This document shows, piece by piece, positions 1 through 18,021 of a stretch of DNA of 64,000 nucleotides. Below the pieces are notes generated by a model. The model was not told the DNA's origin, ran no database searches, and saw only the letters and a program-made list of their open reading frames with translations. Position 1 is the first letter of the stretch. Each line of letters begins with the position of its first letter. This DNA comes from Bacilli bacterium (lineage in GTDB: Bacteria; Bacillota_I; Bacilli_A; ML615J-28; CAG-313). Location: positions 91,748 through 155,747 of the forward strand of contig JAZSNL010000030.1 in the NCBI GenBank assembly GCA_045536365.1, read 5' to 3'. A program made the position numbers and the translations under genes.

Positions 1-2
1 CT

Positions 3-242
3 AAAAAGTATTTAGAAGAGCATAATTTTGGAAAGTATTTGTCACTAGGTGGTGATTTACCAACTTACTTGCATAACATAGACAAGCAAGCTGATGAGAT
101 TTATGAAGTAATGTATAAAAACCTATCAGCTAAATCTGAAAACAAAAAGACAGAAGATTTCTTAAAAAATGTGCAAATTGAGAATTCAATCCAAAAAGAA
201 ATTGAAGAAGTCATATTAAATGAATTAATATATGTAGAATAG
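3..242 (+). CDS. tnpV: TnpV-family transposon-encoded protein (5' partial)
   Basis: Frame is open from base 3: KKYLEEHNFGKYLSLGGDLPTYLHNIDKQADE...EEVILNELIYVE, matching the TnpV pattern YL.EH...Y..L..G.L..YL..ID.QA.E...E.V.NELIY. Confidence 0.7.
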   Translation, partial: KKYLEEHNFGKYLSLGGDLPTYLHNIDKQADEIYEVMYKNLSAKSENKKTEDFLKNVQIENSIQKEIEEVILNELIYVE

Positions 243-256
243 GAGAAATTTAAAAA

Positions 257-466
257 ATGGAAATCGCAGTAATAGATCAAGTAGATACTTTAGAAAAACT
301 ACACGAAATTAGATACAGACTAGGGAATGAATTTTGTTCACCACATGAAATGGACATATATTTATTAGCAGTAGAGATTGTAGATAAAGAAATAACTTCA
401 GTAATAGCTGAATTAAAAAAACTAGTTAATAAAGATGAAGGAGAAGAAAAAAATGAAAGTAATTAA
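257..466 (+). CDS. Hypothetical protein (mobile element)
   Basis: 69-aa ORF with RBS AGGAGA at 241-246. Confidence 0.55.
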   Translation: MEIAVIDQVDTLEKLHEIRYRLGNEFCSPHEMDIYLLAVEIVDKEITSVIAELKKLVNKDEGEEKNESN

Positions 467-569
467 AGCATTAGGATTTATAAGTAAAATTGGAATTATG
501 TGTTTAGCAATAGTTTGTAATATAATATTAAATTTAGCAGCATTATTTGTAAGTGCAATAGTAAAATAG
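453..569 (+). CDS. Small hydrophobic peptide, 38 aa (MKVIKALGFISKIGIMCLAIVCNIILNLAALFVSAIVK); not in the ORF track
   Basis: RBS AGGAGA at 439-444; start overlaps the previous ORF; next RBS follows the TAG stop. Confidence 0.5.
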   Translation: MKVIKALGFISKIGIMCLAIVCNIILNLAALFVSAIVK

Positions 570-581
570 GAGGAATAAGTT

Positions 582-815
582 ATGCCAAGAAAAGAAGATA
601 CACCACTAAGAAATGCTAGAAGAAGTTATGAAGAAAGAAATAAGGAAGAAAGATTAAAAGCTACTACTCAGTTTAATACTAGACTTCCAAAAGAAAAGTA
701 TGATGAGATAAATGAGTTTCTTGAAAAACATAATATTAGAAAAATTGATTTAATTTATGCAGGCTATGAAGCGTTAAAAGAAACTTGTCGCAATTTGTCG
801 AATAGCACTAAATAG
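582..815 (+). CDS. Small basic protein, possibly ribbon-helix-helix DNA-binding
   Basis: RBS GGAGG; FNTRLPKEKYDEINEFLEKHNIRKIDLI resembles the strand-helix-helix pattern of RHH proteins. Confidence 0.45.
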   Translation: MPRKEDTPLRNARRSYEERNKEERLKATTQFNTRLPKEKYDEINEFLEKHNIRKIDLIYAGYEALKETCRNLSNSTK

Positions 816-905
816 CTTGATTTAGGGGAGATGAAATCCCCTTTTATTGACCAATTATAGTTAAGGCTCTTGTAGAAGGCTACTATATGGAAGACATCAA
901 AAAGA

Positions 906-947
906 TGGAAACGTATAGTAGAATATACAAAAAAATATACGTTTCCA
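906..947. repeat. Perfect 12-bp inverted repeat TGGAAACGTATA / TATACGTTTCCA with 18-nt spacer
   Basis: Arms at 906-917 and 936-947; an extra AAACGTATA half-site at 966-974. Confidence 0.8.
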
Positions 948-967
948 CAACATTAAAGAGGAGGTAA

Positions 968-1312
968 ACGTATATTAGAAAAAGTAAAATAACTCAAATC
1001 GTAAGTAGTTATTTTAGTGAAAAAGAAGAAACAGAAGACAAAGTTATAGAAACAAAAGTAGAAGAAGTAATAGAAGAGAAACAATTATCTAGAAAAGAAC
1101 TACTTGAAATTTATTCAAAGAAGGTTTATGAAAATGAACCGATTGATCTAGACAAGTTATCAAAGGAAGATAGAAACTTATGTTATTATGCGATACAATT
1201 GGGATGGTTAAATTATCTAAAGGAAATAGATAAAATTACTCAAGTTGAATATGATAAAATAAAAAATTATCTAATGAATAAATTTAAGATTAAACCAAAA
1301 CTAAATTTATAA
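968..1312 (+). pseudogene. ORF with C-terminal SHOCT-like segment and no canonical start codon
   Basis: Open frame 968-1312 ending YYAIQLGWLNYLKEIDKITQVEYDKIKNYLMNKF..., similar to small genes found upstream of element recombinases. Preceded by GGAGGT (960-965) and an in-frame TAA (965-967); only ACG/ATT candidate starts. Confidence 0.5.
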
Positions 1313-1357
1313 AGAAGGGAGAGTATAATATTTAACTATATTATACAAGTTTAAAAT

Positions 1358-3157
1358 ATGAATAATAATGTTAAAGTAATTAAGGCAAGTGTTGCACCTA
1401 GAGATAGAAGAAAAATAAATCAACTAGGTGAATTGAGAGTAGGAGCATATTGTAGAGTATCTACTGATACTGAAGACCAATTAAATAGTTATAATTCTCA
1501 AGTTAAATATTATACTGACCTTATTAATAGTAAAGAAGAATGGACTTTAGTCGATATTTATGCAGATGAGGGAATTACTGGAACGCAAGTTGGAAAAAGA
1601 GAAAGCTTTCAAAGAATGATTAATGATTGTGCTGAAGGTAAAATTGATATGATTATTACTAAATCAATATCAAGATTTGCAAGAAACACAGTTGATACAT
1701 TACAATTTGTTAGAAAGTTAAAAGAAAGAAATATTGCAGTATTTTTTGAAGAAGAAAATATAAATACATTAAGTATGGATGGAGAGTTATTACTTACTAT
1801 TTTAAGTTCAGTCGCACAACAAGAAGTAGAAAATATTTCTGCAAATGTTAAAAAAGGTTTAAAGATGAAAATGCAACGAGGAGAAATGATAGGTTTCAAA
1901 GGTTGTTTAGGTTATGATTATGATCCAGTTACAAAAAATTTAATAATAAATGAAAAGGAAGCTGAAGTTGTTAGATTTATATTTGATAAATATATTGAAG
2001 GATATGGTTCTTTTACAATTTCAAGATTATTAAAAGAAAAAGGATATTCATCTAAAGGTGGATGCAAAAATTGGCCTGTATCTACAATTATTACAATATT
2101 AAAAAATGAAAAATATAAAGGGGATTTATTATTAGGAAAATCTTTTACATCAGATCCAATTAATAAAAAGAAAGTGATTAATAATGGTGAAGAAGATAAA
2201 TATTATATTAGTAATCATCATGAACCAATTATTAGTGCAGAAACTTTTGATATGGCACAACAAATAATGAGTAAAAATAGTGAATCATTTAAAAGTTCTT
2301 TAAAGACAGATGGATTTAGACCTGCAAAGTATACATTTAGTCAAAAGATATATTGTGCATATTGCGGTCATAGATTTCAAAGAAGAGGAATTAATGAAAG
2401 ATGTCATAATAATTTAGTTGGTTGGAATTGTACAACTGCAGTGAACAAAGGTAAAAAAGCATGTATTGAAAGTAGATTTGTAGAGCAATCAATTATAGAA
2501 AGTGGATTCATTGATGCTTTGAATAAAATTAAAAAGACTGGTATATTAGATGATTTTGTTTATAATTTAAAGACTATGTTAAATGATAAATCTCCAGAGA
2601 GAAAAGCTGATGAATTGGTAAAAGAAATAAATGTATTAGAAAATAAAAAAAGACAATTACTTGAAATTAGACTTGAAGGTATTATAACTAAGGAAGATTT
2701 TGAAATACAATATAAATCCATAAGTGAAAAAATAAAAACTAAAAATGAACAATTATCAAAAGTCAATTCAGAGATTACTAATAAAGATGTAATTGCTATT
2801 AGGATAGAAGATTTAAGAAAAATTATATCAATTAAAACGATTGAAAGATTTGATAGTGATACATTTGAATTACTAATAGATAAAATAATTGTTGGTGGAT
2901 ATGATGAAAAAGGTAAACCAGATCCTTACTTACTAGAATATAAGTTTAAACTAAATTATAATTATAAAATCAATGGTCAAGCAATTAAAAAAAAATACAC
3001 AGTGTGTCAAAATGAGTCGAATGATTTAGGTGCTATGACTACTTTTTGTCAGTTACGTACAACTCAGGTGCGTCGAAACATTGAGTTACATAGCACTGAC
3101 ACATTTTCTGAAATCGATAAGTCTTCTAGTAAGGCTTATTTTTTTTGCATTTTATAG
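1358..3157 (+). CDS. Large serine recombinase (resolvase + recombinase + Zn-ribbon/coiled-coil)
   Basis: AYCRVST catalytic motif, IITKSISRFARNTVD, GYDYD recombinase domain, HEPIISAETF, CAYCG...C...C zinc ribbon. Confidence 0.95.
   Translation: MNNNVKVIKASVAPRDRRKINQLGELRVGAYCRVSTDTEDQLNSYNSQVKYYTDLINSKEEWTLVDIYADEGITGTQVGKRESFQRMINDCAEGKIDMIITKSISRFARNTVDTLQFVRKLKERNIAVFFEEENINTLSMDGELLLTILSSVAQQEVENISANVKKGLKMKMQRGEMIGFKGCLGYDYDPVTKNLIINEKEAEVVRFIFDKYIEGYGSFTISRLLKEKGYSSKGGCKNWPVSTIITILKNEKYKGDLLLGKSFTSDPINKKKVINNGEEDKYYISNHHEPIISAETFDMAQQIMSKNSESFKSSLKTDGFRPAKYTFSQKIYCAYCGHRFQRRGINERCHNNLVGWNCTTAVNKGKKACIESRFVEQSIIESGFIDALNKIKKTGILDDFVYNLKTMLNDKSPERKADELVKEINVLENKKRQLLEIRLEGIITKEDFEIQYKSISEKIKTKNEQLSKVNSEITNKDVIAIRIEDLRKIISIKTIERFDSDTFELLIDKIIVGGYDEKGKPDPYLLEYKFKLNYNYKINGQAIKKKYTVCQNESNDLGAMTTFCQLRTTQVRRNIELHSTDTFSEIDKSSSKAYFFCIL
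3089..3103 (+). other. Predicted attR half-site; ACA core at 3101-3103 inside the recombinase coding sequence
   Basis: Encodes HSTDT in the recombinase frame; 14/15 identical to 17930-17944. Confidence 0.6.
3118..3146 (+). terminator. Rho-independent terminator just outside attR
   Basis: TAAGTCTT-ctagt-AAGGCTTA followed by a T8 run. Confidence 0.55.
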
Positions 3158-3418
3158 GGTATTTTAGCTAGTTTTAGTTAGAATACCTTATTTTTTCATT
3201 CATTTATGAAACATTTAGATTTAAAGACTAGGTGAGACTGACCACGGACTCGAACCATTTACTTACGGGTATCGAACATTTAGTTCTGATGGGACTCGAA
3301 CCTATAAGAGATAATGGTGGAATAATAAACAAAAATGTGATAAAATATTTTTATAGTTGAAGAAAAAACAGCATAAATTTTGTCTTATTATATGAAGAGA
3401 TATTTATAGGAGTACTTT

Positions 3419-3940
3419 ATGGACTATAATGATAAACTTAAAAAATTTATTAAAGAGAATAACAAAGCTAAAATAGACGATCTATTTGAAGAGATTTATT
3501 ATTCATATAGGAAGTTAGTGAGTTTTATTATTGCTAAATATGTAAATAACCATATGGATGTTGAGGACTTAACTAGTGATGTTTTTATTAACTTTTATAA
3601 GAAAATTCATGTCAGTGAAATTAATAATATAAAGTATTATTTAGTCACATCAGCTAAGAATTTAGCAATCAATTATTTAAATAAAAAAGAAATATATATA
3701 GAATTTGATGATAATTTTGTTTATGAATGTGAACAATATAATGGTGGATTAGATAAATATTATGAGTTAATAGATTATTTAAAAACGCTTGTTTCTGAAT
3801 TTGAACTCGAAATTATATTGAAACACTTAGTTTATGATTATACTTTTAAGGATTTATCAACGCTTTACGACAAACCTTTAAAGTCAATATACTCTATATA
3901 TTCTCGTGCAATAAAAAAAATAAAAAAAGGAGTAAAGTAA
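3419..3940 (+). CDS. ECF RNA polymerase sigma factor
   Basis: DVEDLTSDVFINFY (region 2), YLVTSAKNLAINYL, and a region 4 HTH (YTFKDLS...KSIYSIYSRAIKKIK). Confidence 0.9.
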   Translation: MDYNDKLKKFIKENNKAKIDDLFEEIYYSYRKLVSFIIAKYVNNHMDVEDLTSDVFINFYKKIHVSEINNIKYYLVTSAKNLAINYLNKKEIYIEFDDNFVYECEQYNGGLDKYYELIDYLKTLVSEFELEIILKHLVYDYTFKDLSTLYDKPLKSIYSIYSRAIKKIKKGVK

Positions 3941-3941
3941 T

Positions 3942-5423
3942 ATGTCAAGAAAAAAAGATATCAATAAAATACTTTCTAATTTCGAATTTGATTACAATAA
4001 TGATTTTGACGATATAAAAAAAGAACTACATATTTCTAATAATAATCAACCTAGAAAAACACATAGTTTTAAATATGCTTATTCAATTTTAATGACTGTT
4101 TTAGTTATTGCATTATCAATAGTTGTTATTAATATGAATGGCAAAAATGAAATGAATCAAAAGTATAATTTAGAAGTTATAGATAATTTTAATTATATTA
4201 TAGATCCTTTACAAGAGACATATGTCGCAGGAGAAGAAGTAACAGTGACATTAAAGACAACATTACCTGAAATAAATGGTATTAGATTAAATAATGTAGA
4301 TTATTATAGTGAATATGATAATTCTAAAAATCAAAGTATTGTTAAATTTAACATGCCTAATAAAGATTCTAAACTATATACTATTTCTAATGAATACATA
4401 GATAAAGCTTGTAATAATGAAAATCATGAATGGATTGAAGAAGACGAGTTATATGAAATTAAAAGTTTAGGTATAACAGAAAAATGCTTCATTTGTTCTA
4501 AGTGTGGAGAAAAGAAAAGTATACCATTTGAATTAAATTCTTATAATGCTACAGTTTTGGTTGAGTCAATTAATGTTAAGATAGACGACAATACTAAAAA
4601 TGAGTTTAAGGTTATTAAATCAATGGCTGAAGCCAATTCTTTTATAGAAAATATTAATAAATATAATGATAAAAAAATCGAATGTCCAAGCTATATTAAT
4701 GATGAGTATTTCCAAGAATACTATTTATATATTAATTACCAATTAGCTCAAGATCCCTATAGAGAAAATACTTATTATAAAGTAAATGAGGACAATTCAT
4801 TAGAACTTTATTTGATTAAAGATTTTCCAAACAAATATTTATTATCTGAATTTAATTTTGATGAATATCAATTAGGTATAAAGCCTACCTTAGTATCTAT
4901 AGTTAAAGTTAAAAAAGAAATACTTGATTCAACTGATAATATATTTGTAAAAACAATAATTAATTTATCAATTGAAATTCTTGATATTCATCCAATCATT
5001 GGATTTATACCAAAGTCAAATTTTCAAATTAATACTAATAATTTTATTTGTGATAATAAAATTTCTTTTACATCTAATATTATTAGATCTGTAGAAGAAT
5101 TAAATATATTTAAACAATACTTTGATATTCCAGATGAAGCTTATACTAAATATGATGAGGAATATTTTAAAACTAATTCGTTAGTGGTTTTCAAGGATAT
5201 AATAAAAAAACAGTTATATCAGTATGCTATGGATATAGTTAATTTCGAGATCTCAAATGGAAAAATTTATTTTTACTACAAAAAAACAGTTAAATACAAC
5301 CTTAGTAATTCAGATGTTTCAGAAGAAAATATATACTTATATAAGTTGATTGAAGTGCCGAATAATACTTTACAAGAAAAAGAAAACGTAGAGTTTGTTG
5401 AAATAGTCTCTTTATTTGATTAA
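3942..5423 (+). CDS. Putative anti-sigma factor (single TM, large extracellular region)
   Basis: Starts 1 nt after the ECF stop; short N-terminal cytoplasmic part, TM YAYSILMTVLVIALSIVVI, Cys/His cluster, two Y..EYF repeats. Confidence 0.7.
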   Translation: MSRKKDINKILSNFEFDYNNDFDDIKKELHISNNNQPRKTHSFKYAYSILMTVLVIALSIVVINMNGKNEMNQKYNLEVIDNFNYIIDPLQETYVAGEEVTVTLKTTLPEINGIRLNNVDYYSEYDNSKNQSIVKFNMPNKDSKLYTISNEYIDKACNNENHEWIEEDELYEIKSLGITEKCFICSKCGEKKSIPFELNSYNATVLVESINVKIDDNTKNEFKVIKSMAEANSFIENINKYNDKKIECPSYINDEYFQEYYLYINYQLAQDPYRENTYYKVNEDNSLELYLIKDFPNKYLLSEFNFDEYQLGIKPTLVSIVKVKKEILDSTDNIFVKTIINLSIEILDIHPIIGFIPKSNFQINTNNFICDNKISFTSNIIRSVEELNIFKQYFDIPDEAYTKYDEEYFKTNSLVVFKDIIKKQLYQYAMDIVNFEISNGKIYFYYKKTVKYNLSNSDVSEENIYLYKLIEVPNNTLQEKENVEFVEIVSLFD

Positions 5424-5435
5424 TTTATAAAAAAA

Positions 5436-5470
5436 TGTCACCTTTTACTATTTTAAATTGTTTTATATAT
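5436..5470 (+). promoter_or_regulatory. Candidate ECF-type promoter, copy 1 (TGTCAC-N-TTGTTTTATATAT)
   Basis: 32/35 identical to 6914-6948; both copies lie upstream of lipoprotein genes. Confidence 0.6.
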
Positions 5471-5606
5471 ATAAGATTAAAAGTTCTCTTATAAAGAGAT
5501 GGTATTCTAGTGCAGATTTTATAATTATGTATTATAATATAAATAAGTAAAATAGTTCCAAAAAAATTTACTTTTATTTGTTATATTAATAGGAGGTATA
5601 ATTTAT

Positions 5607-6821
5607 ATGAAGAAAATATTAGTTAGTATGCTTTTATTAGTATTCGGATTATGTTTAGTAGGGTGTGCTCTTGTAGAAAGCAAAACATTTACTATAGCCT
5701 TAAGAGATGGTTTATATTCTGGACAATATAACGATATTTATGATATATATATTGAATTTGATAATATTTCCATAAATGAATTTGTTAAAACACAAACAGG
5801 AAACTGTATGAAAGATTTATATACTAAAGATGAAAAATATTATACACCATACGATGTACACATTATAATTACGTCTGCTGCTTATAATGAAAAAATATAT
5901 AATACAAGAATTAGATTTAAGGATATGGTTGCAATTAATAATCAAACTACAACAACGTATAAGCTTTCAAATATTACTGATGATGGTTCGTATGATATAT
6001 CCAAATTTAATATAGAATTAGTGGATACTGACAATGATTTAGTTGCAGATAAGTTGAATTTAGATATTGAAAGTAAGTTTATTAATGGGGAATGTGAATT
6101 AGTTTATCATCCAGAAAGCGGATCAGAAGATTTACACAGTATTCAAATGGTAAATTATTCTTTAACATATGATGAGAATTTGGTTGTAGAAGTTGGACAT
6201 TATGAAAACTCAAAAACTGTTATTGCAGGATATAAACTTGTATTTTATGTTAAATCATCAAGTATTGATAAGGAAGTACTAATGTATATTAATAATGAAC
6301 AAGTTGGGCATCCTCAAATATCAATATTTCACGGTGATGAGTGGTACGAGTATGAATATATAATTGGGTATAGTAATGTTGATATAAGATTTGAAGAAGT
6401 GCCAATATTTCATGAACATGAATACATTGATGGTTTATGTGAATGTGGTGAATTCGATAGTGTTTGGTTACATGAAAACTTTAGATTATCAGATGAACAA
6501 ATATTATTTAAAGGTAGTGTTGATGACGAATTCAATTGTAATGTCATTCTATTAACTTTAAAGCATACAACAACATATATTGAATTATCAAAAAGACATT
6601 TTAAATTAGATGAAATAACTGAAGTAGTATATATAAGTTCAACTCCCCCAAGTCATTTCTATGAACCTGGTAATGAAGACAAGTTAAATAATTTTCATCA
6701 AATTGTATTTTTATATGTTGATGTTGAAACAAAAGAAGAGATTATTGAATTAATAATAGAATTAGAGAAATTACCATTTGTTGAAAGCGTAGGCCCTAAT
6801 TCTATTGAACATGGAGAATAA
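5607..6821 (+). CDS. Lipoprotein of unknown function
   Basis: Lipobox LCLVG-C; HEHEYIDGLCECG module; RBS AGGAGG. Confidence 0.75.
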   Translation: MKKILVSMLLLVFGLCLVGCALVESKTFTIALRDGLYSGQYNDIYDIYIEFDNISINEFVKTQTGNCMKDLYTKDEKYYTPYDVHIIITSAAYNEKIYNTRIRFKDMVAINNQTTTTYKLSNITDDGSYDISKFNIELVDTDNDLVADKLNLDIESKFINGECELVYHPESGSEDLHSIQMVNYSLTYDENLVVEVGHYENSKTVIAGYKLVFYVKSSSIDKEVLMYINNEQVGHPQISIFHGDEWYEYEYIIGYSNVDIRFEEVPIFHEHEYIDGLCECGEFDSVWLHENFRLSDEQILFKGSVDDEFNCNVILLTLKHTTTYIELSKRHFKLDEITEVVYISSTPPSHFYEPGNEDKLNNFHQIVFLYVDVETKEEIIELIIELEKLPFVESVGPNSIEHGE

Positions 6822-6827
6822 CCAATC

Positions 6828-6861
6828 AAGCTAGCTAACTCAAAAAGTTAGCTGGCTTTTT
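6828..6861 (+). terminator. Rho-independent terminator
   Basis: AAGCTAGCTAACT / AGTTAGCTGGCTT hairpin followed by Ts. Confidence 0.75.
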
Positions 6862-6913
6862 AAATAGTAGAAATAAATGAAGAAATGTGGTACAATTAAA
6901 ATATAAAATTTTT

Positions 6914-6948
6914 TGTCACTTTTTACTAAGTTAAATTGTTTTATATAT
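6914..6948 (+). promoter_or_regulatory. Candidate ECF-type promoter, copy 2
   Basis: 32/35 identical to 5436-5470. Confidence 0.6.
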
Positions 6949-7004
6949 GAAAGGTTCAAAAAAATTTTATAGTTATTTGTTATATAGATAGGAGGTAAAC
7001 TTTA

Positions 7005-7778
7005 ATGAAAAAAATATTATTAATGATATTAGCATTTTGTTCTTTATTAATTTTAAGCGGATGTTTTTTATATGGAGAAAAAGAAGAAACTACTGTTGGA
7101 GACCTAGTATATTTACATGTTAAGACTAACAGTGATGAATATTATAGTGTTATTGGTTTAAGTGAAGAAGGAAAATTAAAAAGTAGAATTACTGTTCCAG
7201 CAGAAGTTAATGGACTTTCAGTAAAGAAAATAGGATTTTTGAGGTCTAAAACTCGTGTCGGATCAATAACAAGTGATAAACTTGAGATAATATATTTGGA
7301 AAAATATATAGAATTTGCCCATACTGATTTTTTTATAGATTGTCCAAATCTTGAAAAAATTATTTGTTTAGAATTTGAAGATAAATTTGAAGAATTTTAT
7401 GATTATCGAGAGCAATATGTTAAATATAATCTAAATACAGAAAATGAGCAAATAAGACGTTTACCTATATATGTTTATCCATCAAAAGATTTTGTAGAAG
7501 ATAGTCAAGATAATTTATACGTCTACGCCAATATTATATATTACAATGATAATAATGCAGTTTATTATATAGATTATAGTGCTAGTAATAAAATAGAAAA
7601 ATTACCCGAAGAACCTGTACGTGAAGGATATAAATTTTTGGGATGGTATAAAGAACCAGATTGTATTAATGAATGGAATTTTGCTGAAGACAATTTAAAT
7701 GAGATTATCAATTTAGAATATTCAGTTCAATTTAATGTGAATAAACTATATGCAAAATGGGAGGAAGTCGCTGATTAA
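7005..7778 (+). CDS. Lipoprotein with C-terminal InlB B-repeat (Listeria-Bacteroides repeat)
   Basis: Lipobox LILSG-C; PEEPVREGYKFLGWY...KLYAKW. Confidence 0.8.
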   Translation: MKKILLMILAFCSLLILSGCFLYGEKEETTVGDLVYLHVKTNSDEYYSVIGLSEEGKLKSRITVPAEVNGLSVKKIGFLRSKTRVGSITSDKLEIIYLEKYIEFAHTDFFIDCPNLEKIICLEFEDKFEEFYDYREQYVKYNLNTENEQIRRLPIYVYPSKDFVEDSQDNLYVYANIIYYNDNNAVYYIDYSASNKIEKLPEEPVREGYKFLGWYKEPDCINEWNFAEDNLNEIINLEYSVQFNVNKLYAKWEEVAD

Positions 7779-8001
7779 AGGATTTAAAAAATATTTTATT
7801 GGTATTATATTTATCTTCGTTTTAACCTTAATAATAGGGAATTTTGAAGTTAAAGCTTCGTCCCAGATTTGGGTAAATTATAAATATTCAGACACTGATT
7901 TATATGATTTAACAAATACATATAATTATGATAAAATAACAATAGAGGAATTATACGCAAAGGAAAATGGTGAATTAGCAACTAGGGATTATAACTCATA
8001 G
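7750..8001 (+). pseudogene. Truncated secreted/membrane protein
   Basis: Signal-like hydrophobic stretch ending VKA-S, then an early stop with coding-like sequence continuing out of frame. Confidence 0.4.
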
Positions 8002-8099
8002 TATTTTAATATGAGTCAAAAAATAATGAAGTTGTTACTACAAGTCAACTCACAGAAATCAAACAATCAAAAATTAGATTAAAATGGCCCATTTAAACA

Positions 8100-8176
8100 A
8101 AAAAGTGCGAAATATGTTGAAAACTCCCTATAAAAAAGTGCACATTTTACTTGAAACTCGATATAAAAAGTGTATA
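8100..8176 (+). repeat. Three direct repeats AAAAAGTG at 32-33 bp pitch
   Basis: AGTG cores at 8104, 8137 and 8169. Confidence 0.65.
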
Positions 8177-8197
8177 AAATAATCAGAGGTGAGATTT

Positions 8198-8305
8198 ACG
8201 TTTGAAAGAAAAATTTATAATGACATTATTTCTTGGCATGAATCTTTAAAAATTAAAAAAAGAACTCTAATCATAAAAGGTGAATATCCAAAATATTACT
8301 TGTAA
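8198..8305 (+). pseudogene. N-terminal relic of an AAA_14/DUF4143-type ATPase
   Basis: RBS GAGGTGA, then ACG (probable mutated ATG) and FERKIYNDIISWHESLKIKKRTLIIKG; breaks exactly where the Walker A GARQVGKT would start. Confidence 0.6.
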
Positions 8306-8560
8306 AAAATAGCTGCTAATGAGAACATTAATTTGTTTAAATTAACAGCTTTTATTTTATTTGTTATCCAGGAGCACACATTCCCCCTTTTGTTATATTA
8401 CCTGACTTTTTTTATATGTCCGAAACATAGGGGGTATTTTAATAAATGTTAGCTGACTTTTTATGTAGCAAATATTTTCAAAAAAGATTATAATATTATT
8501 ATAAAATTGTGGGAACCTTTTTATAACTTTTGCAACTATATAAGTGAAGAGGTAAAAAGT

Positions 8561-10159
8561 ATGAATAAAGATGAGTTAAAAGAAAAAGTAGTTGATTATG
8601 CCAGTAAAGTATTTTTTTATTGCGTTAAAAGATGTAATAGCAGAATAGATGCTGAAGACTTATCACAAACAATACTTCTAGAAATAATCCAAAATATCGA
8701 TAAAGGTGCACGTATTGATAATTTAGATTATTATATTTGGGGTGTATGTAAAAATCAATATAATATGTATTTAAGAAAAACTATCAAAGATAGAAATAAT
8801 CTTGAGTATAAAGAAGAAATTGATGAAAAAGATGAATCTCCCTCAGCACTTGATGAAATGTTAAAAGATGAAAAGATTAGAAGAATGAATCAAGCTATCA
8901 AACTATTGAGTAAGGATTATGCACAAATACTTTATGCTTATTATGTAGAAGATAAAACTCTAAAGTTCATTGCAGAAGAATTAAATATGCCTCTTGGAAC
9001 AGTAAAGAAAAGACTGTTTACTATTAGACAAAAGTTAAAGGAGTATTTAGCTATGGAAAAATTAAATGGAAAAAAAGCATACATACCAAAGAACTTTCAT
9101 GGAATAATGGCGAATGAAGGAGAATTGGATTTTAATCCTGATTATGAAATTGAACCATTATTGATTAAAAACTTACTATTTCACTCATATAATAATCCTT
9201 GTTCTTTAGAGGATTATTCAATAGAATTAGGTATATCTATCGTGTATATTGAAGATTATGTTAGACGACTTGTAGAAAAAGATTTCTTAATAAAACAGGA
9301 AAATGGTAAATATTTAACAAATATAGCTTTTGTAGATAAAAAAACAAAACGAAAGATTTTTGATTTAGTAAGAGAAAATATAGATATTATTCAAAAACCA
9401 ATTATTGAATTTTGTAAAGAAAATATAGAATATTATCGTTCTTTATTATTGAATGATGTTAATAATGATGAATTATTAATGTGGTCATTAATTTATATTG
9501 TTGAAGTAGCTATGAGAAAAAGTGAATCGGGTACGAGAACTAAAAAATGCAAAAATGGTTCGTGGGATTACTGTATGGCTGAATTGACAAATGATCATGA
9601 ATATGATGAATATTTTATATCACACAATACATCATCAGTTGATGAGTTTAACGCAAAACTTGTTGCGTGGCCCTCATCTGTAGATAATCCTAATTTTAAA
9701 GTTGGGTATAGAACATCTTGGCATATTGCAGCTAATGCTAGAGAAGATTATCGATTATTTTCTCTTGTTTTAGATAAAAAATTAAAATATAGTGAATTAG
9801 ATGCTGAAACAAAAATATTTGTAGATGAATATAAAAATAAAAATTATTTAAAAATTGAAAATGATATTGTTGAAATTGTCCCTCCTATTATTTCAGAAAG
9901 TAATTTTTTTAAATTATATAATTTTATTAAAAATGATATTGATCTTCAAAAGGCTTTAAATGAATATTCTACTAATGTGTATAAAGAAGTAGAAAAATTA
10001 TTTCCTGCATATTTACATAATCAAATTGAATTCATTGTTTCAGCTTTCACTAACACTGAGCGTTCAATAATAATTAATTATGCTTATAATCAAGGATTGT
10101 TATCTTTAGATGAAGAACATGAATATTTTGTTTATAATATGGTAATAGTAAAAAAATAA
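8561..10159 (+). CDS. ECF sigma factor with a long C-terminal extension
   Basis: DAEDLSQTILLEI, YIWGVCKN, region 4 TLKFIAEELNMPLGTVKKRLFTIRQKLK; about 360 extra aa. Start moved to ATG 8561 after GAGG; candidate own promoter GGAACC...GCAACTA at 8511-8538. Confidence 0.85.
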   Translation: MNKDELKEKVVDYASKVFFYCVKRCNSRIDAEDLSQTILLEIIQNIDKGARIDNLDYYIWGVCKNQYNMYLRKTIKDRNNLEYKEEIDEKDESPSALDEMLKDEKIRRMNQAIKLLSKDYAQILYAYYVEDKTLKFIAEELNMPLGTVKKRLFTIRQKLKEYLAMEKLNGKKAYIPKNFHGIMANEGELDFNPDYEIEPLLIKNLLFHSYNNPCSLEDYSIELGISIVYIEDYVRRLVEKDFLIKQENGKYLTNIAFVDKKTKRKIFDLVRENIDIIQKPIIEFCKENIEYYRSLLLNDVNNDELLMWSLIYIVEVAMRKSESGTRTKKCKNGSWDYCMAELTNDHEYDEYFISHNTSSVDEFNAKLVAWPSSVDNPNFKVGYRTSWHIAANAREDYRLFSLVLDKKLKYSELDAETKIFVDEYKNKNYLKIENDIVEIVPPIISESNFFKLYNFIKNDIDLQKALNEYSTNVYKEVEKLFPAYLHNQIEFIVSAFTNTERSIIINYAYNQGLLSLDEEHEYFVYNMVIVKK

Positions 10160-10315
10160 AAATAATAGTTTGTTAACTGACATTTTAAGAAATAGAATTA
10201 TTTTGCTTTTTGTTATAATATAATTGTAAATTTCAATTCAACCAATGAGCGAGAAAAAAAGTAAAAACTCAACTTTTAATATCTGGTTTTCAACTATAGT
10301 GGATGATATAATGTT

Positions 10316-10337
10316 AATAGAAACTTAAGTTTCTATT
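10316..10337. promoter_or_regulatory. Perfect 22-bp palindrome AATAGAAACTTAAGTTTCTATT, candidate XRE operator
   Basis: Directly downstream of the extended -10 TGATATAAT upstream of the XRE gene. Confidence 0.45.
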
Positions 10338-10384
10338 TGTAATACTTGCAAGATTACTATAATATAAATCAAGGAGAAAAGTTT

Positions 10385-11173
10385 ATGAATTTTAAATTAG
10401 CAGAAAATTTACAATTATTAAGAAAACAAAAAGGAAAAACTCAAGAAGAACTAGCTGAAATATTTGGCGTATCTAGCCAAAGTATTTCTAAATGGGAACT
10501 AGGCATTAATTGTCCTGATATTACAATGTTACCTAAACTAGCAGATTATTATAGGATATCAATTGATGAATTGTTAGGATATAAACCGATGTCATCGATT
10601 AATAGTATTTATATTGATGTGAAGTCGCTAATAGAATCATCGGATAATAAAATAGATGATGCGTACAAAATTGCCAGACTCGCTGTGGCTTCAATTCATG
10701 ATAAAGAAAGAAAACAAGCAGAAAGATTGTTAGTAGGTAAAAGGGATTATAGTTTAGCATATGGCCAAGAAAAGACAGGTCTAACAATTTGTTCAGATGA
10801 AAGTGTATTTATTTGTTCATTTGTTGATTTAAGAGATTATGATATAACAACAATTAGAAAAGTGGCTAATTATTTAAACAAAATTAGTGATTTAAATACA
10901 CTTAAAGTTATATTTGGCTTATTTAATTTACATGTAAAAAATAAAGAATCAAATTCTTTTAGTATCGATGAAATTATGGAAGAAACTAAATTAGATTATA
11001 ATTGTGTTAATAAAGTATTAAATAATATTGATGTAGTCTTTGACAGAGATGAATACAATAAAACGGGTGTTGAGAAATATACATTATCACATTTAGATCA
11101 AATACCACTACTTATAACTTTATTGGTTCCTACAATTGATAAATATAATTACAATCTTAAAGATGTAGATTAA
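10385..11173 (+). CDS. XRE-family HTH transcriptional regulator
   Basis: LRKQKGKTQEELAEIFGVSSQSISKWELG..PDITMLPKLADYYRISIDELLG; start set at ATG 10385 after GGAG. Confidence 0.9.
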   Translation: MNFKLAENLQLLRKQKGKTQEELAEIFGVSSQSISKWELGINCPDITMLPKLADYYRISIDELLGYKPMSSINSIYIDVKSLIESSDNKIDDAYKIARLAVASIHDKERKQAERLLVGKRDYSLAYGQEKTGLTICSDESVFICSFVDLRDYDITTIRKVANYLNKISDLNTLKVIFGLFNLHVKNKESNSFSIDEIMEETKLDYNCVNKVLNNIDVVFDRDEYNKTGVEKYTLSHLDQIPLLITLLVPTIDKYNYNLKDVD

Positions 11174-11291
11174 TTGTTTGAAAAATCTGTATAATTAATA
11201 TATAATATGAATATTAAAAAATTAATTAATTAAAAATTTATATATTGGGAAAATTATAGAGTCTCTAATATTTAGATTAAAGGAGAAAATA

Positions 11292-12995
11292 ATGAAAAAT
11301 AGATATTATTTATGGATAGTCATCATTATATTATTAAGTTTAACAGGATGTAAAACTCCTGAACATATTCATCATTATGTTGATGGTAAATGTGATTGTG
11401 GAGAAGTAGAACCAAAAAACACTTATACCTTAACTTTTGATACCGATGGAGGTAGTGAGATTGATACAGTTGTCTTGTTTGCGGGATCTACTATTGTTGT
11501 ACCTGCAGATCCTGTAAAAGAAGGGCATGAATTTTTAGGATGGAGTCCAAACTTACCTGAAGTTATGCCTGATGATAATGTTGAAGTTAAAGCTCTTTGG
11601 AAAGTTAAGACATATGAAATTATATTTAATACAAATGGTGGAACTTCAGTTAAAAATTGTAATGTTGCCTATGGTGAACAAATCAATATTCCTACTGATC
11701 CAAGTAAAGAAGGATATAAATTTTTAGGATGGTATTATAATGATCAACCCTGGGATTTTAAAACTAATGTTACTAGTGATTTAGAGTTATATGCTAAGTG
11801 GGAAGAATTAACAAAACATGCGGTAGTGTTTAAAGATGATAATGATATTATTTGGGAAATAGATTTTTATTGTGGAGAAAAAATTATTTTTGATTTAAAA
11901 AACGTTATTGATTTGAATTATCTTGTAATCACAGAAATTGGTGAATTTCCAAAGTATATGCCTGATAGTGAGGTAATAGTTCCTGTTAAATGTTATGATA
12001 TTAGAGATGTTTTTACTTTATCAGATGATGGACAAGGTATTAGTAGTTATTTAGGTAATAGTAAAGATGTCATTGTTCCTAGTGGTTATTATTGTGATAA
12101 TGATTTTATTGAAATTAGTCGAATTGAATCATGGTGTTTTGACGGAAATAAAGAAATTGAAAGCGTTGAGTTACCTAATACTATTAATACAATTGGTCGT
12201 GAAGCTTTCAATAATTGTTGGAATTTAAAAACTGTTAATATTCCGTTTGGAGTAGAAGTGATTAATTATAAATCATTCAGTGATACATCAATTGAAGAAA
12301 TAACTATACCCGACAGTGTGACTACAATTGTTAATTCAGCGTTTTCAGGATGTGAAGAGTTAAAATCTATTGTTATTCCTAATAGTGTAAAAGAAATTGG
12401 CGATAGTATATTTATTAACTGCACTAGTTTAGTAAGCGTTAGTATTCCTTTTACTGGTAATAGATTAGAAAATCCGACTAATACATATTTTGGATATATC
12501 TTTGGAGATTTAAAGTATAATAAAGGTTATAGTTCATCTATTCCAATGTCGTTAGATCAAATAATTTTAACTAATACAGTTGATATTGCAGATTCAGCTT
12601 TTGAAGGGGTTAAATATGTTAATGAAATTATTCTTTCCGAAGGTTTAAAAACAATAGGTGAATATGCTTTTGCGGATTGTGATAATTTAAGAAGTATTGA
12701 AATGCCTTCAACATTAGAAGAAATTAAAAAACATGCATTTAGTAGTTGTAACGAATTAAGTGAGATTATCTTAAATGAGGGATTAAAGAAAATTCAAAAT
12801 GTTATATATTCAGGTAGTAAATTAATGAGTATTGTTATTCCAGAAAGTGTCGAATATATCGGAAGTTGCGCTTTTGGAAATGAAAATATGACTATTTACT
12901 GTAAAGCAGAAGAAAAACCAAGTGAGTGGGAAAATGATTGGAATTTGATTTATGGTGCTGACTATATTGATGTAGTATGGGGTTATGAAGAATAA
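11292..12995 (+). CDS. Surface lipoprotein with InlB B-repeats and BspA-like LRR_5 repeats
   Basis: Lipobox LSLTG-C; two TF.T.GG...P.KEG..FLGW repeats; multiple IPxSV..IG..AF..C..L repeats. Confidence 0.9.
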   Translation: MKNRYYLWIVIIILLSLTGCKTPEHIHHYVDGKCDCGEVEPKNTYTLTFDTDGGSEIDTVVLFAGSTIVVPADPVKEGHEFLGWSPNLPEVMPDDNVEVKALWKVKTYEIIFNTNGGTSVKNCNVAYGEQINIPTDPSKEGYKFLGWYYNDQPWDFKTNVTSDLELYAKWEELTKHAVVFKDDNDIIWEIDFYCGEKIIFDLKNVIDLNYLVITEIGEFPKYMPDSEVIVPVKCYDIRDVFTLSDDGQGISSYLGNSKDVIVPSGYYCDNDFIEISRIESWCFDGNKEIESVELPNTINTIGREAFNNCWNLKTVNIPFGVEVINYKSFSDTSIEEITIPDSVTTIVNSAFSGCEELKSIVIPNSVKEIGDSIFINCTSLVSVSIPFTGNRLENPTNTYFGYIFGDLKYNKGYSSSIPMSLDQIILTNTVDIADSAFEGVKYVNEIILSEGLKTIGEYAFADCDNLRSIEMPSTLEEIKKHAFSSCNELSEIILNEGLKKIQNVIYSGSKLMSIVIPESVEYIGSCAFGNENMTIYCKAEEKPSEWENDWNLIYGADYIDVVWGYEE

Positions 12996-16772: not shown

Positions 16773-17195
16773 ATGAATAAAAAAACAACATTTTTTCTTA
16801 TATTTAAAATTATTGGTTTTCTATTTATTATACTAAGCATATTTGGATTTATATTATCAGCAAAAGGATTTGGTGATTTTGAAACTAATAATTTTATGAT
16901 TGGAGCTGTTCTTGGAACTGTTGGATTATTTATTGGAATCACTTGTTTGATGATAGGATTTAGAACTGAATTGGCAAAAATAGCGATTAAATCAGCAAAA
17001 CATATTCAAGAAGAAAATAAAGAAGATTTAAAAGATATTGCGGATACATCAGCAAAGATTACTGGTGATGCGGTAAAGGTAACGACAAAAAATATTAAAG
17101 AAGGATTAAAAGAAGAAACTATTTATTGTAAACATTGTGGATTGCTAATAGATGCTGATTCTATATTTTGTAGTCAATGTGGTAAAAAACAATAA
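16773..17195 (+). CDS. Membrane protein with C-terminal zinc ribbon
   Basis: Two TM helices; YCKHCG...FCSQCGKKQ. Confidence 0.8.
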   Translation: MNKKTTFFLIFKIIGFLFIILSIFGFILSAKGFGDFETNNFMIGAVLGTVGLFIGITCLMIGFRTELAKIAIKSAKHIQEENKEDLKDIADTSAKITGDAVKVTTKNIKEGLKEETIYCKHCGLLIDADSIFCSQCGKKQ

Positions 17196-17582
17196 TAATA
17201 GACTAGTCAAGACATGTGTTGACTATGGAGTTGATGTCCTTAATTTAGATGAAAATAATATAAAAATAGGAAATTTAGTGTATAAATATAGATATTTAGC
17301 TTATGTAGTATGTCCAAAAGGATATAGATATATAGAGTGAAGGTATAGAACTAATATAGTCTTAAGTATTAACTTCTACACTACTAAAAGTTGGAATTTA
17401 TGAAAAATGAGTTTAATTTAGTAATTTATAGTTTTTTGAACATTAAAAAATGATTATATAAAAATAAGGTAAATAAAATTATTTATCAATTCGGAAATAC
17501 CAACTTTTATTGCCAACTCATATAATAATAAAGTTGGTAATAAAATATAAAATGTATGTTTAGAAAATATGTGTTTAATAAG

Positions 17583-17661
17583 GTTGGAAAAATGAAAAAA
17601 TTAAAGTTCTTTATGGTTGTAAAAATGCAATTTTTGTGGTGTAATATAGTTGGAAAAATGC
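17583..17661 (+). repeat. Three direct repeats GTTG(G/T)AAAAATG at 33-bp pitch
   Basis: Starts at 17583, 17616 and 17649. Confidence 0.75.
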
Positions 17662-17674
17662 AAGAGGTGATAAT

Positions 17675-17794
17675 GTGTTATTCAGAAAAGCATATAAAGA
17701 CATAAAAAAATGGTTTGATTCTACTAATAAAAATGCGTTATTAATTGATGGAGCAAGTCAAATTGTAAACATTGATATTAGTGCTTTAAAGTAA
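17675..17794 (+). pseudogene. N-terminal relic of an AAA_14/DUF4143-type ATPase
   Basis: RBS GAGGTGA, GTG start, LFRKAYKDIKKWFDSTNKNALLIDGASQI; degenerates within the Walker A (GARQVGKT) motif. Confidence 0.65.
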
Positions 17795-18021
17795 GAATTA
17801 AAGGTGGACTTAAATATGTATTTTAAGTCCATTTTTTACTCAAAGTAATAGTATTAAACTAGGTTAAAATGAAAATTAACAACTTATTGTCAAGTCCATA
17901 GTGTACGGGTATTATAAAACTTACAATCGCATAGTACTGACACACCTTGACAAGTCTATTTTATTAAAACATTTACTTTTTTATTAAAATATTGTATAAT
18001 ATGTATATAAGGAGATGCTTT

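Follow-up and report, generated by a model that had tools for sequence, protein, structure and literature searches.

All of the rumA-inserted streptococcal integrative and conjugative elements (ICEs) carry attR within the gene of their serine integrase (Ambroset et al. 2016, PMC4701971). On integration rumA and the integrase gene swap their 3' parts, and the excised form of the integrase differs in length and C-terminus (PMC4701971). CTn5 of C. difficile belongs to the same rumA group, and the authors, citing Mx8, suggested that the two integrase forms may differ in function (PMC4701971). In the literature we have found no test of such a functional difference, a question raised in 2016. Here we analyse a 64,000-nt stretch of DNA from a Bacilli bacterium (hereafter the window), in which a conjugative element ends inside its own large serine recombinase (LSR) gene, the open reading frame (ORF) running on into the neighbouring DNA. 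This architecture was already described in 2016 for serine integrases, and the window locus is a divergent member of it with intergenic targets. The initial annotation of the window had recognised a recombinase gene containing its own att site, an idea that is sound yet not new because of the work of Ambroset et al. 2016 (PMC4701971), and had proposed that the C-terminus acts as a switch. We consider, with a probability of roughly 0.7, that an overlap of gene and recombination site explains the layout and that the variable tail is most likely a passive consequence, added to a C-terminus predicted to be disordered.

Recombinase gene and attachment site

The features on which the argument depends are the following.

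1358–3103, plus strand: element-encoded part of the LSR gene, codons 1–582, without a stop codon (Pfam domains, match to PDB 3G13, structure model)
3038–3103, plus strand: right-end recombination site (P arm and inner sequence), overlapping the last about 22 codons (conserved in mini-element right ends)
3101–3103, plus strand: ACA core, codon of Thr-582, with CA (3102–3103) as the most likely crossover dinucleotide (shared core, divergence points)
3104–3157, plus strand: flank-encoded tail FSEIDKSSSKAYFFCIL (codons 583–599, 17 codons) and TAG stop at 3155–3157 (ORF translation)
3116–3146, plus strand: AU-rich hairpin (3116–3140) and then U8 (3139–3146), within the translated tail and ending 9 nt ahead of the stop (fold)
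3154–3197, plus strand: second terminator-like hairpin (17 pairs) with a T-run, given as 3154–3191 by the scan, starting one base before the TAG stop and overlapping it (terminator scan)
17212–17944, plus strand: non-autonomous mini-element of 733 bp, with the left end ACA followed by TGTGTTGACTATGG and the right end CATAGTACTGAC followed by ACA (ends match the LSR element)

The ORF at 1358–3157 (plus strand) codes for an intact LSR of 599 aa with the Pfam domains Resolvase (PF00239, 30–176, E 4e-33), Recombinase (PF07508, 199–307) and Zn_ribbon_recom (PF13408, 327–389), and its YCRVSTD motif contains S35, which is invariant in the LSR family alignment. The closest solved structure to the catalytic domain is PDB 3G13, a 'putative conjugative transposon recombinase' (E 3.7e-79). 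An AlphaFold2 (AF2) model has coiled-coil helices at 412–439 and 445–491 and a confident fold up to about residue 530; because the predicted local distance difference test (pLDDT) score is below 50 over residues 533–582, which are predicted to be disordered, the flank-encoded tail prolongs an already disordered end. Judged from its sequence, the protein has what is expected of a serine integrase, namely a catalytic domain with the Ser, Recombinase and zinc-ribbon domains with an embedded coiled coil, and short att sites. An exact-protein look-up of the window LSR gave no match, and the hosts carrying its close relatives are uncultured gut 'Bacilli bacterium' metagenome-assembled genomes (MAGs).

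The ACA at 3101–3103 is codon 582, the Thr of HSTDT. Homology to the window ends at 3104–3106 in five independent relatives, here called by our locus numbers: L003/L004 (86% nucleotide identity to the window), L087 (LSR 98% identical), L089 and L090 (83%) and L175 (75%). After ...CACTGACACA, L087 and L089 read TTAGAATGTGTCTATAAGTC where the window reads TTTTCTGAAATCGATAAGTC, and L003 continues beyond the junction with an element left end, TGTGTTGACTACG, the same motif as at the start of the small element at window 17212. The same element, with an LSR 98% identical, is therefore also seen in a second target, where it has a different, 10-aa tail. In L001, L085 and L086 homology extends to about 3329 because all three occupy the same target as the window, and the flank 3104–3329 is only 88–89% identical there (L001, L085). 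Together these alignments confirm the element/flank junction at the ACA codon of Thr-582 to within about 1–2 nt, where the initial annotation had placed the att core. A boundary beyond 3300, which that annotation had itself named as the finding that would speak against it, disagrees with the divergence of L003/L004, L087, L089, L090 and L175 at 3104–3106.

Within the core, CA is the likely crossover dinucleotide, because attL and attR of the mini-element have only ACA in common and its reconstructed attB, AGACTAGTCAAGA-CA-CCTTGACAAGTCT, is symmetric about CA at 11 of 13 positions. The attP-type junction, CATAGCACTGAC-ACA-TGTGTTGACTAYG, has imperfect inverted half-sites around its centre. In the few sites available, GATGTC lies at +19..24 in P' and GATAAGTC at +13..20 in B'; in serine integrases the motif of the zinc domain is about 5 bp nearer the centre in attB than in attP half-sites, which the spacing seen here may reflect.

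Conserved counterparts of the last about 65 bp of the LSR gene are found, as non-coding DNA, in the right ends of three mini-elements (window 17880–17944, L168 and L003), and the last codons of the gene therefore double as a cis site. This conservation at the DNA level points to selection on the DNA site rather than on the peptide. The right end contains two direct 12-nt repeats, TTACGTACAACT (3053–3064) and TTACATAGCACT (3086–3097), 33 nt apart, which are perfect in L003 and L089 and account for the repeated LHST and CS peptide motifs; CATAGT also occurs twice in mini-element right ends. The repeats hint at two putative recombinase-binding sites on the right arm. The motif CATAGYACTGACACA has exactly two copies in the window, at 3089 and 17930.

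A little upstream, ATTAAAAAAAAATACACAGTGTGTCAAAATGAGTCGAATGA (window 2984–3024) is almost DNA-invariant among LSR genes that are only 83–86% identical overall. It includes the palindrome ACACAGTGTGT (2997–3007), which resembles the att core ACACATGTGT, and it lies outside the minimal cis site because it is absent from mini-elements.

Tails in the integrated and excised states

The family was surveyed with 80 relatives from species-representative genomes, 78 of them with complete ORFs. Every one of these 78 ORFs is open through the conserved (D/N)T, and the tails that follow range from 1 to 188 aa with a median of 12. Thousands of proteins 45–55% identical to the window LSR are conserved to ...CSxHSxDT and diverge totally after it; protein relatives are 576–1001 aa long and have C-terminal fusions to host Pfam domains such as ABC ATPase, permease and acetyltransferase. 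Single-residue tails (17/78) result from a flank with NGT TGA in place of the NGT GGA of others, one G/T change at the second tail codon thus deciding between a 1-aa tail and one of at least 8 aa. Among the family members examined, none has an element-encoded stop at a normal position. The only relative with a stop inside the element is L175 (75%-identical LSR, apparently complete ICE), in which a +1 frameshift some 40 nt from the end leads to a TAG within the P arm, 7 nt short of the junction (L175 11690–11745). The LSR of L003/L004 is also frameshifted, and a sliding-window synonymous/non-synonymous comparison with L089 gave a mosaic pattern.

This variability has practical consequences. Because annotations of integrated copies carry host-derived tails and domains (576–1001 aa), catalogues mined for genome-engineering enzymes will hold non-native C-termini. 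Since the (D/N)T codon marks the crossover within 1–2 nt, insertion sites and attB preferences can be read from the ORF in thousands of genomes.

For the window LSR, the relatives in the same target (L085, L086 and L001) have a diverged flank, with the tail FSEIYRSSEKRIYFLFL and similar ones, and in L087 and L089 codons 583–599 are wholly replaced by those of another flank, LECVYKSLDL, which bears out the proposal that the integrated enzyme ends in a host-derived tail. The hairpin and T8 run had also been described accurately as lying before the stop at 3155–3157. The hairpin at 3116–3140 has a 10-bp stem (−9.7 kcal/mol, z −2.5; 3 of 200 shuffles fold as well), and this AU-rich stem was not called by a simple terminator scan, which found 2 sites against 0.2 expected. 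Hairpins of differing sequence occur at the same place in every copy of both targets (L001, L086, L003, L087). The 5' arm of the window hairpin is GATAAGTCT, a conserved attB' motif, and TC-N-ATAAGTCT stands at a fixed distance from the core in the window, L087 and L003; in the hairpin arm it is probably the attB' recognition motif. In its second target the same element meets an ordinary stop after 10 codons, with no terminator ahead of it, and the layout with a terminator before the stop is a property of this one insertion site and not of the element. In this target only, it is possible that some transcripts end in the U8 tract, 9 nt before the stop, and that the resulting non-stop mRNA leads to tagging by transfer-messenger RNA (tmRNA).

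What closes the frame after excision can be approached through related left ends. The claim that the excised ORF is closed by the element's left end is supported by L003, where an 86%-related LSR ORF runs 61 codons into a neighbouring left end across the attP-like junction catagcactgacACAtgtgttgac. The only P' arm in the window is that of the mini-element, which reads CVDYGVDVLNLDENNIKIG... (41 aa) in the LSR frame; over four left ends the LSR-frame tails are 41, 10, 61 and 40 aa, and a 1-nt indel between the window mini-element and its L168 homologue breaks the frame, shortening 41 aa to 10. From the L003 tandem junction and the mini-elements, the excised-state tail of the window LSR would be specified by its own left end.

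The mini-element is inserted in a terminator palindrome just after a zinc-ribbon gene (16773–17195). It derives by internal deletion from a 1.95-kb element, whose full-length copy (L168 835–2788) contains a 451-aa ORF with only a weak YraN-like match in NCBIfam, and the LSR presumably mobilises it in trans.

Tandem arrays of family elements joined by attP-like junctions (right end, ACA, left end) were also observed, at L003 5552–7388 and L168 2770–2830. In L003 the element with the frameshifted LSR is followed by a 1.8-kb element with a SLFN_AlbA_2/HATPase_c_4 gene, and in L168 a further left end comes after the mini-element. Such arrays suggest that resident left ends may serve as integration targets.

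Explanations of the variable tail

In the explanation that we favour, about 65 bp of right-end DNA (3038–3103) would be both the cis site of the recombinase and codons ~561–582 of its gene, with the crossover in the ACA of Thr-582. As the element would supply no stop at its right end, integrated-state translation would enter the neighbouring DNA and proceed to the first in-frame stop, giving a tail of 17 codons here and of 10 codons where the element occupies its second target; the excised form would have its frame closed by the left end (P' arm, ACA followed by TGTGTTGAC...). Both protein forms would have to be active, the attR-fused one for excision and the attP-closed one for integration.

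This layout was most likely inherited from single serine integrases inserting in the rumA 3' end, a clade in which the P arm would mimic rumA DNA and the left end would carry a replacement rumA C-terminus. Many relatives have a conserved right flank, TGTGGAGACGGTGGTATTGATGTC, whose frame +1 reads VETVVLMSR and matches the C-terminus of RumA-family methyltransferases (the intact PF05958 ORF in L119 ends HHVECVSLLQRETI), and relatives 46–52% identical to the window LSR sit in the rumA 3' end. In the rumA frame, the P' arm of the mini-element reads HVLTMELMSLI followed by a stop (17213–17248), which looks like a vestigial replacement RumA C-terminus. The target in the window is not the rumA 3' end; the flank there is the hairpin/terminator region, with no RumA-like reading. 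An interpretation of the conserved right flank of the wide family as tandem P' ends was rejected, as it is the rumA 3' end.

The best-surviving alternative, which we nevertheless hold to be improbable, is that the tail swap is an evolved switch, as the initial annotation had proposed. The integrated form with its host tail would then be made from a non-stop mRNA, tagged by tmRNA and be unstable or weak, and the excised form would be stable and integration-proficient. The ORF open through the core in all 78 relatives would fit such a switch, as would the hairpin and U8 ahead of the stop in all four hosts sharing the target and the two of four left ends in which the LSR frame meets no stop for 41 and 61 codons despite the AT-rich DNA. 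However, a built-in control of directionality or expression is difficult to reconcile with integrated tails that share no sequence and vary in length all the way from 1 to 188 aa, as decided in places by the aforementioned G/T change, or with a second target in which a normal stop follows after 10 codons with no preceding terminator. The left-end frame is broken by the 1-nt indel in the L168 homologue (10 versus 41 aa), L175 terminates inside the element, and the tail is appended to a predicted disordered region. The hairpin itself is weak, and the stronger terminator-like hairpin comes after it, overlapping the stop.

Slightly less probable again is a form of state-sensing control in which the open frame is kept on purpose and the neighbouring DNA sets the level of the integrated-state LSR through the gene's own 3' end. 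If this were true, most transcripts in terminator-side targets would not reach the stop codon, tmRNA tagging and degradation of the protein would hold excision low, and the circular form would give a cleanly terminated, stable enzyme. As the element occurs naturally in two targets, one of which puts a terminator within the tail, it offers a simple contrast for comparing the protein forms.

Several points weigh against the explanation that we favour, the first two of them also in favour of the functional alternatives. All 78 relatives keep the frame open over some 50 codons that evolve fast and lie in the disordered region, which pure neutrality does not obviously predict, and some selection on the C-terminal peptide, or on translation through the site, may act; it is because of this open frame that we leave both alternatives a small share of the probability. 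In Mx8 an analogous C-terminal change alters integrase activity (PMC6070905, and as cited in PMC4701971). In addition, the excised-state tail could be deduced only indirectly, because the window element's own left end was not recovered by contig walking, motif scans, or metagenome or viral-contig scans. Walking from L001 via a 396-aa protein came to a scaffold gap at 21 kb from the LSR end, and the next query, a truncated primase ORF, had matches of at most 63% identity only. Scans for the P' motif in the fetched loci and twelve close-relative loci found left ends only in L003/L004, and the rumA-type P' motif, used to look for the left ends that small relatives have, returned right-hand junctions only. 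The metagenome scan yielded the L168 mini-element, with the left ends known from L168, and not an ICE. The viral-contig scan for the element right end gave no match, viral contigs holding only 36–49% relatives, and the best plasmid relative of the LSR is 46% identical.

Much weaker than either functional alternative is the explanation that the window holds a decaying, immobile copy whose read-through reflects loss of an original stop. The frameshifted LSR of L003/L004 would suit it, and MAG assemblies cannot show activity; but the 582-codon frame of the window is intact with all three domains present, copies that are nearly identical have been found in many samples and at two different targets, and no family member has an element stop at the normal position. 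Finally, that the stop at 3155 is the recombinase's own and 3104–3329 is element DNA, with the boundary beyond 3300, we consider extremely unlikely: the window, L001, L085 and L086 are indeed alike until ~3325–3330, but the five other relatives diverge at 3104–3106, L087 has a different flank after the same 98% LSR, the flank is 88–89% identical against ~99% inside the element, and the homologue of 3177–3355 lies 9 kb from the LSR in L089.

The surrounding element and comparison with known systems

The remaining features belong to the conjugative element upstream of the junction.

1–3103, plus strand: right-hand part of the ICE, the window starting inside the element (Pfam TnpV, related contigs)
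39–242, plus strand: TnpV fragment (Pfam match)
257–466 and 582–815, plus strand: small ORFs upstream of the LSR gene
849–3103, plus strand: recombination module exchangeable between otherwise identical ICE backbones (comparison with L169)

Related contigs with the same backbone carry, upstream, a type IV secretion system pilin, a VirB4-like AAA_10 protein, a VirD4/TraG coupling protein and a primase-polymerase. On the basis of these conjugation genes and of TnpV and the small ORFs in the window, the LSR gene is placed at the right end of a conjugative element. Window 1–3329 is 97–99% identical to L001, L085 and L086 (97.3–98.9% for the alignments as a whole). Window 1–848 is 98% identical at the nucleotide level to L169 17534–18381, with a different module beyond; the L169/L171 module, inserted directly ahead of a proC-like gene, encodes an unrelated LSR of 559 aa (27% identity) that ends at a stop codon of its own. 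The sequences part at about window 848, right after a terminator-like hairpin (824–842). As the L169 backbone runs on into a 3066-aa gene, the element is longer than 30 kb.

Downstream of the junction, two tRNA-3'-end-like fragments (GGTTCGAGTCC motifs, minus strand) occur in 3233–3329, just ahead of the point at ~3325–3330 where the synteny of the window, L001, L085 and L086 is lost together; in L089 the block homologous to 3177–3355 stands apart from the LSR by 9 kb. Searches of tRNA, tmRNA and Rfam gave no match, and ARAGORN none either; 3233–3322 is therefore not an RNA gene. The region 3233–3329 may be a hotspot for other integrating elements. Further on, at 3419–12995, sigma-70/ECF-like genes (3419–3940, 8507–10159) are interleaved with lipoprotein-like ORFs having signal-peptide-like N-termini, as read from the ORF translations. 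The ORF 3419–3940 matches Pfam Sigma70_r2, the other sigma-like genes of the run being judged from translations only, and the whole region varies among contigs sharing attB.

Among known systems, the rumA ICE integrases are like the window LSR in that attR lies in the integrase gene, the C-terminus differs between the integrated and excised states, and a single LSR with PF00239, PF07508 and PF13408 sits at the ICE right end. Unlike them, the window subfamily uses at least two intergenic-looking, hairpin-associated targets sharing TC-N-ATAAGTCT, its P arm is without the rumA-like TGTTCC motif, and it coexists with non-autonomous mini-elements and tandem arrays. The intP/intX pair of Mx8 likewise has attP in the integrase coding sequence, and integration creates a new 3' end and a changed C-terminus (PMC6070905, PMC4383910). 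The Mx8 enzyme is, however, a tyrosine recombinase in which, as cited in PMC4701971, 112 folded residues are replaced by 13 with a measured change of activity. In the window LSR the change is confined to a short extension of an end predicted to be disordered.

SSV1-type fusellovirus integrases are archaeal tyrosine recombinases whose gene is split by integration into two non-functional parts. As in the window, their recombinase ORF extends across attP (PMC4383910). Tn4451/Tn4453 differ from the window element in having a GA core and in that the change concerns the 5' end (promoter) and not the coding 3' end. The circular joint of Tn4451 forms the tnpX promoter, so the state of the element alters recombinase expression. 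Their TnpX is, like the window protein, a large serine recombinase beside tnpV (PMC3158075). Similarity of the window LSR to TnpX is weak (2MHC, E 1.6e-4), and DUF4368 gave no match in the window LSR even at E up to 10. Membership in the multi-targeting TnpX/TndX clade was rejected on the missing DUF4368 and on the core, ACA/CA instead of GA. We also rejected Cp36 of Durrant et al. as a relative, its N-terminal sequence being unrelated, and the IME_Rho_tet recombinases as the same kind, which have their own stop 81–90 bp inside the element.

The analogy with BPs that the initial annotation had drawn is weaker than that with Mx8 intP/intX, where the integrase itself is affected. In the integration-dependent immunity of BPs, attP lies inside a gene, and integration changes the C-terminus and the stability of the protein. 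The gene affected there is the repressor, the recombinase is of the tyrosine type and integration removes a defined ssrA-like degron, whereas no defined degron is seen in the window LSR. Apart from its practical value, the window LSR is biologically ordinary, a divergent member of a described architecture.

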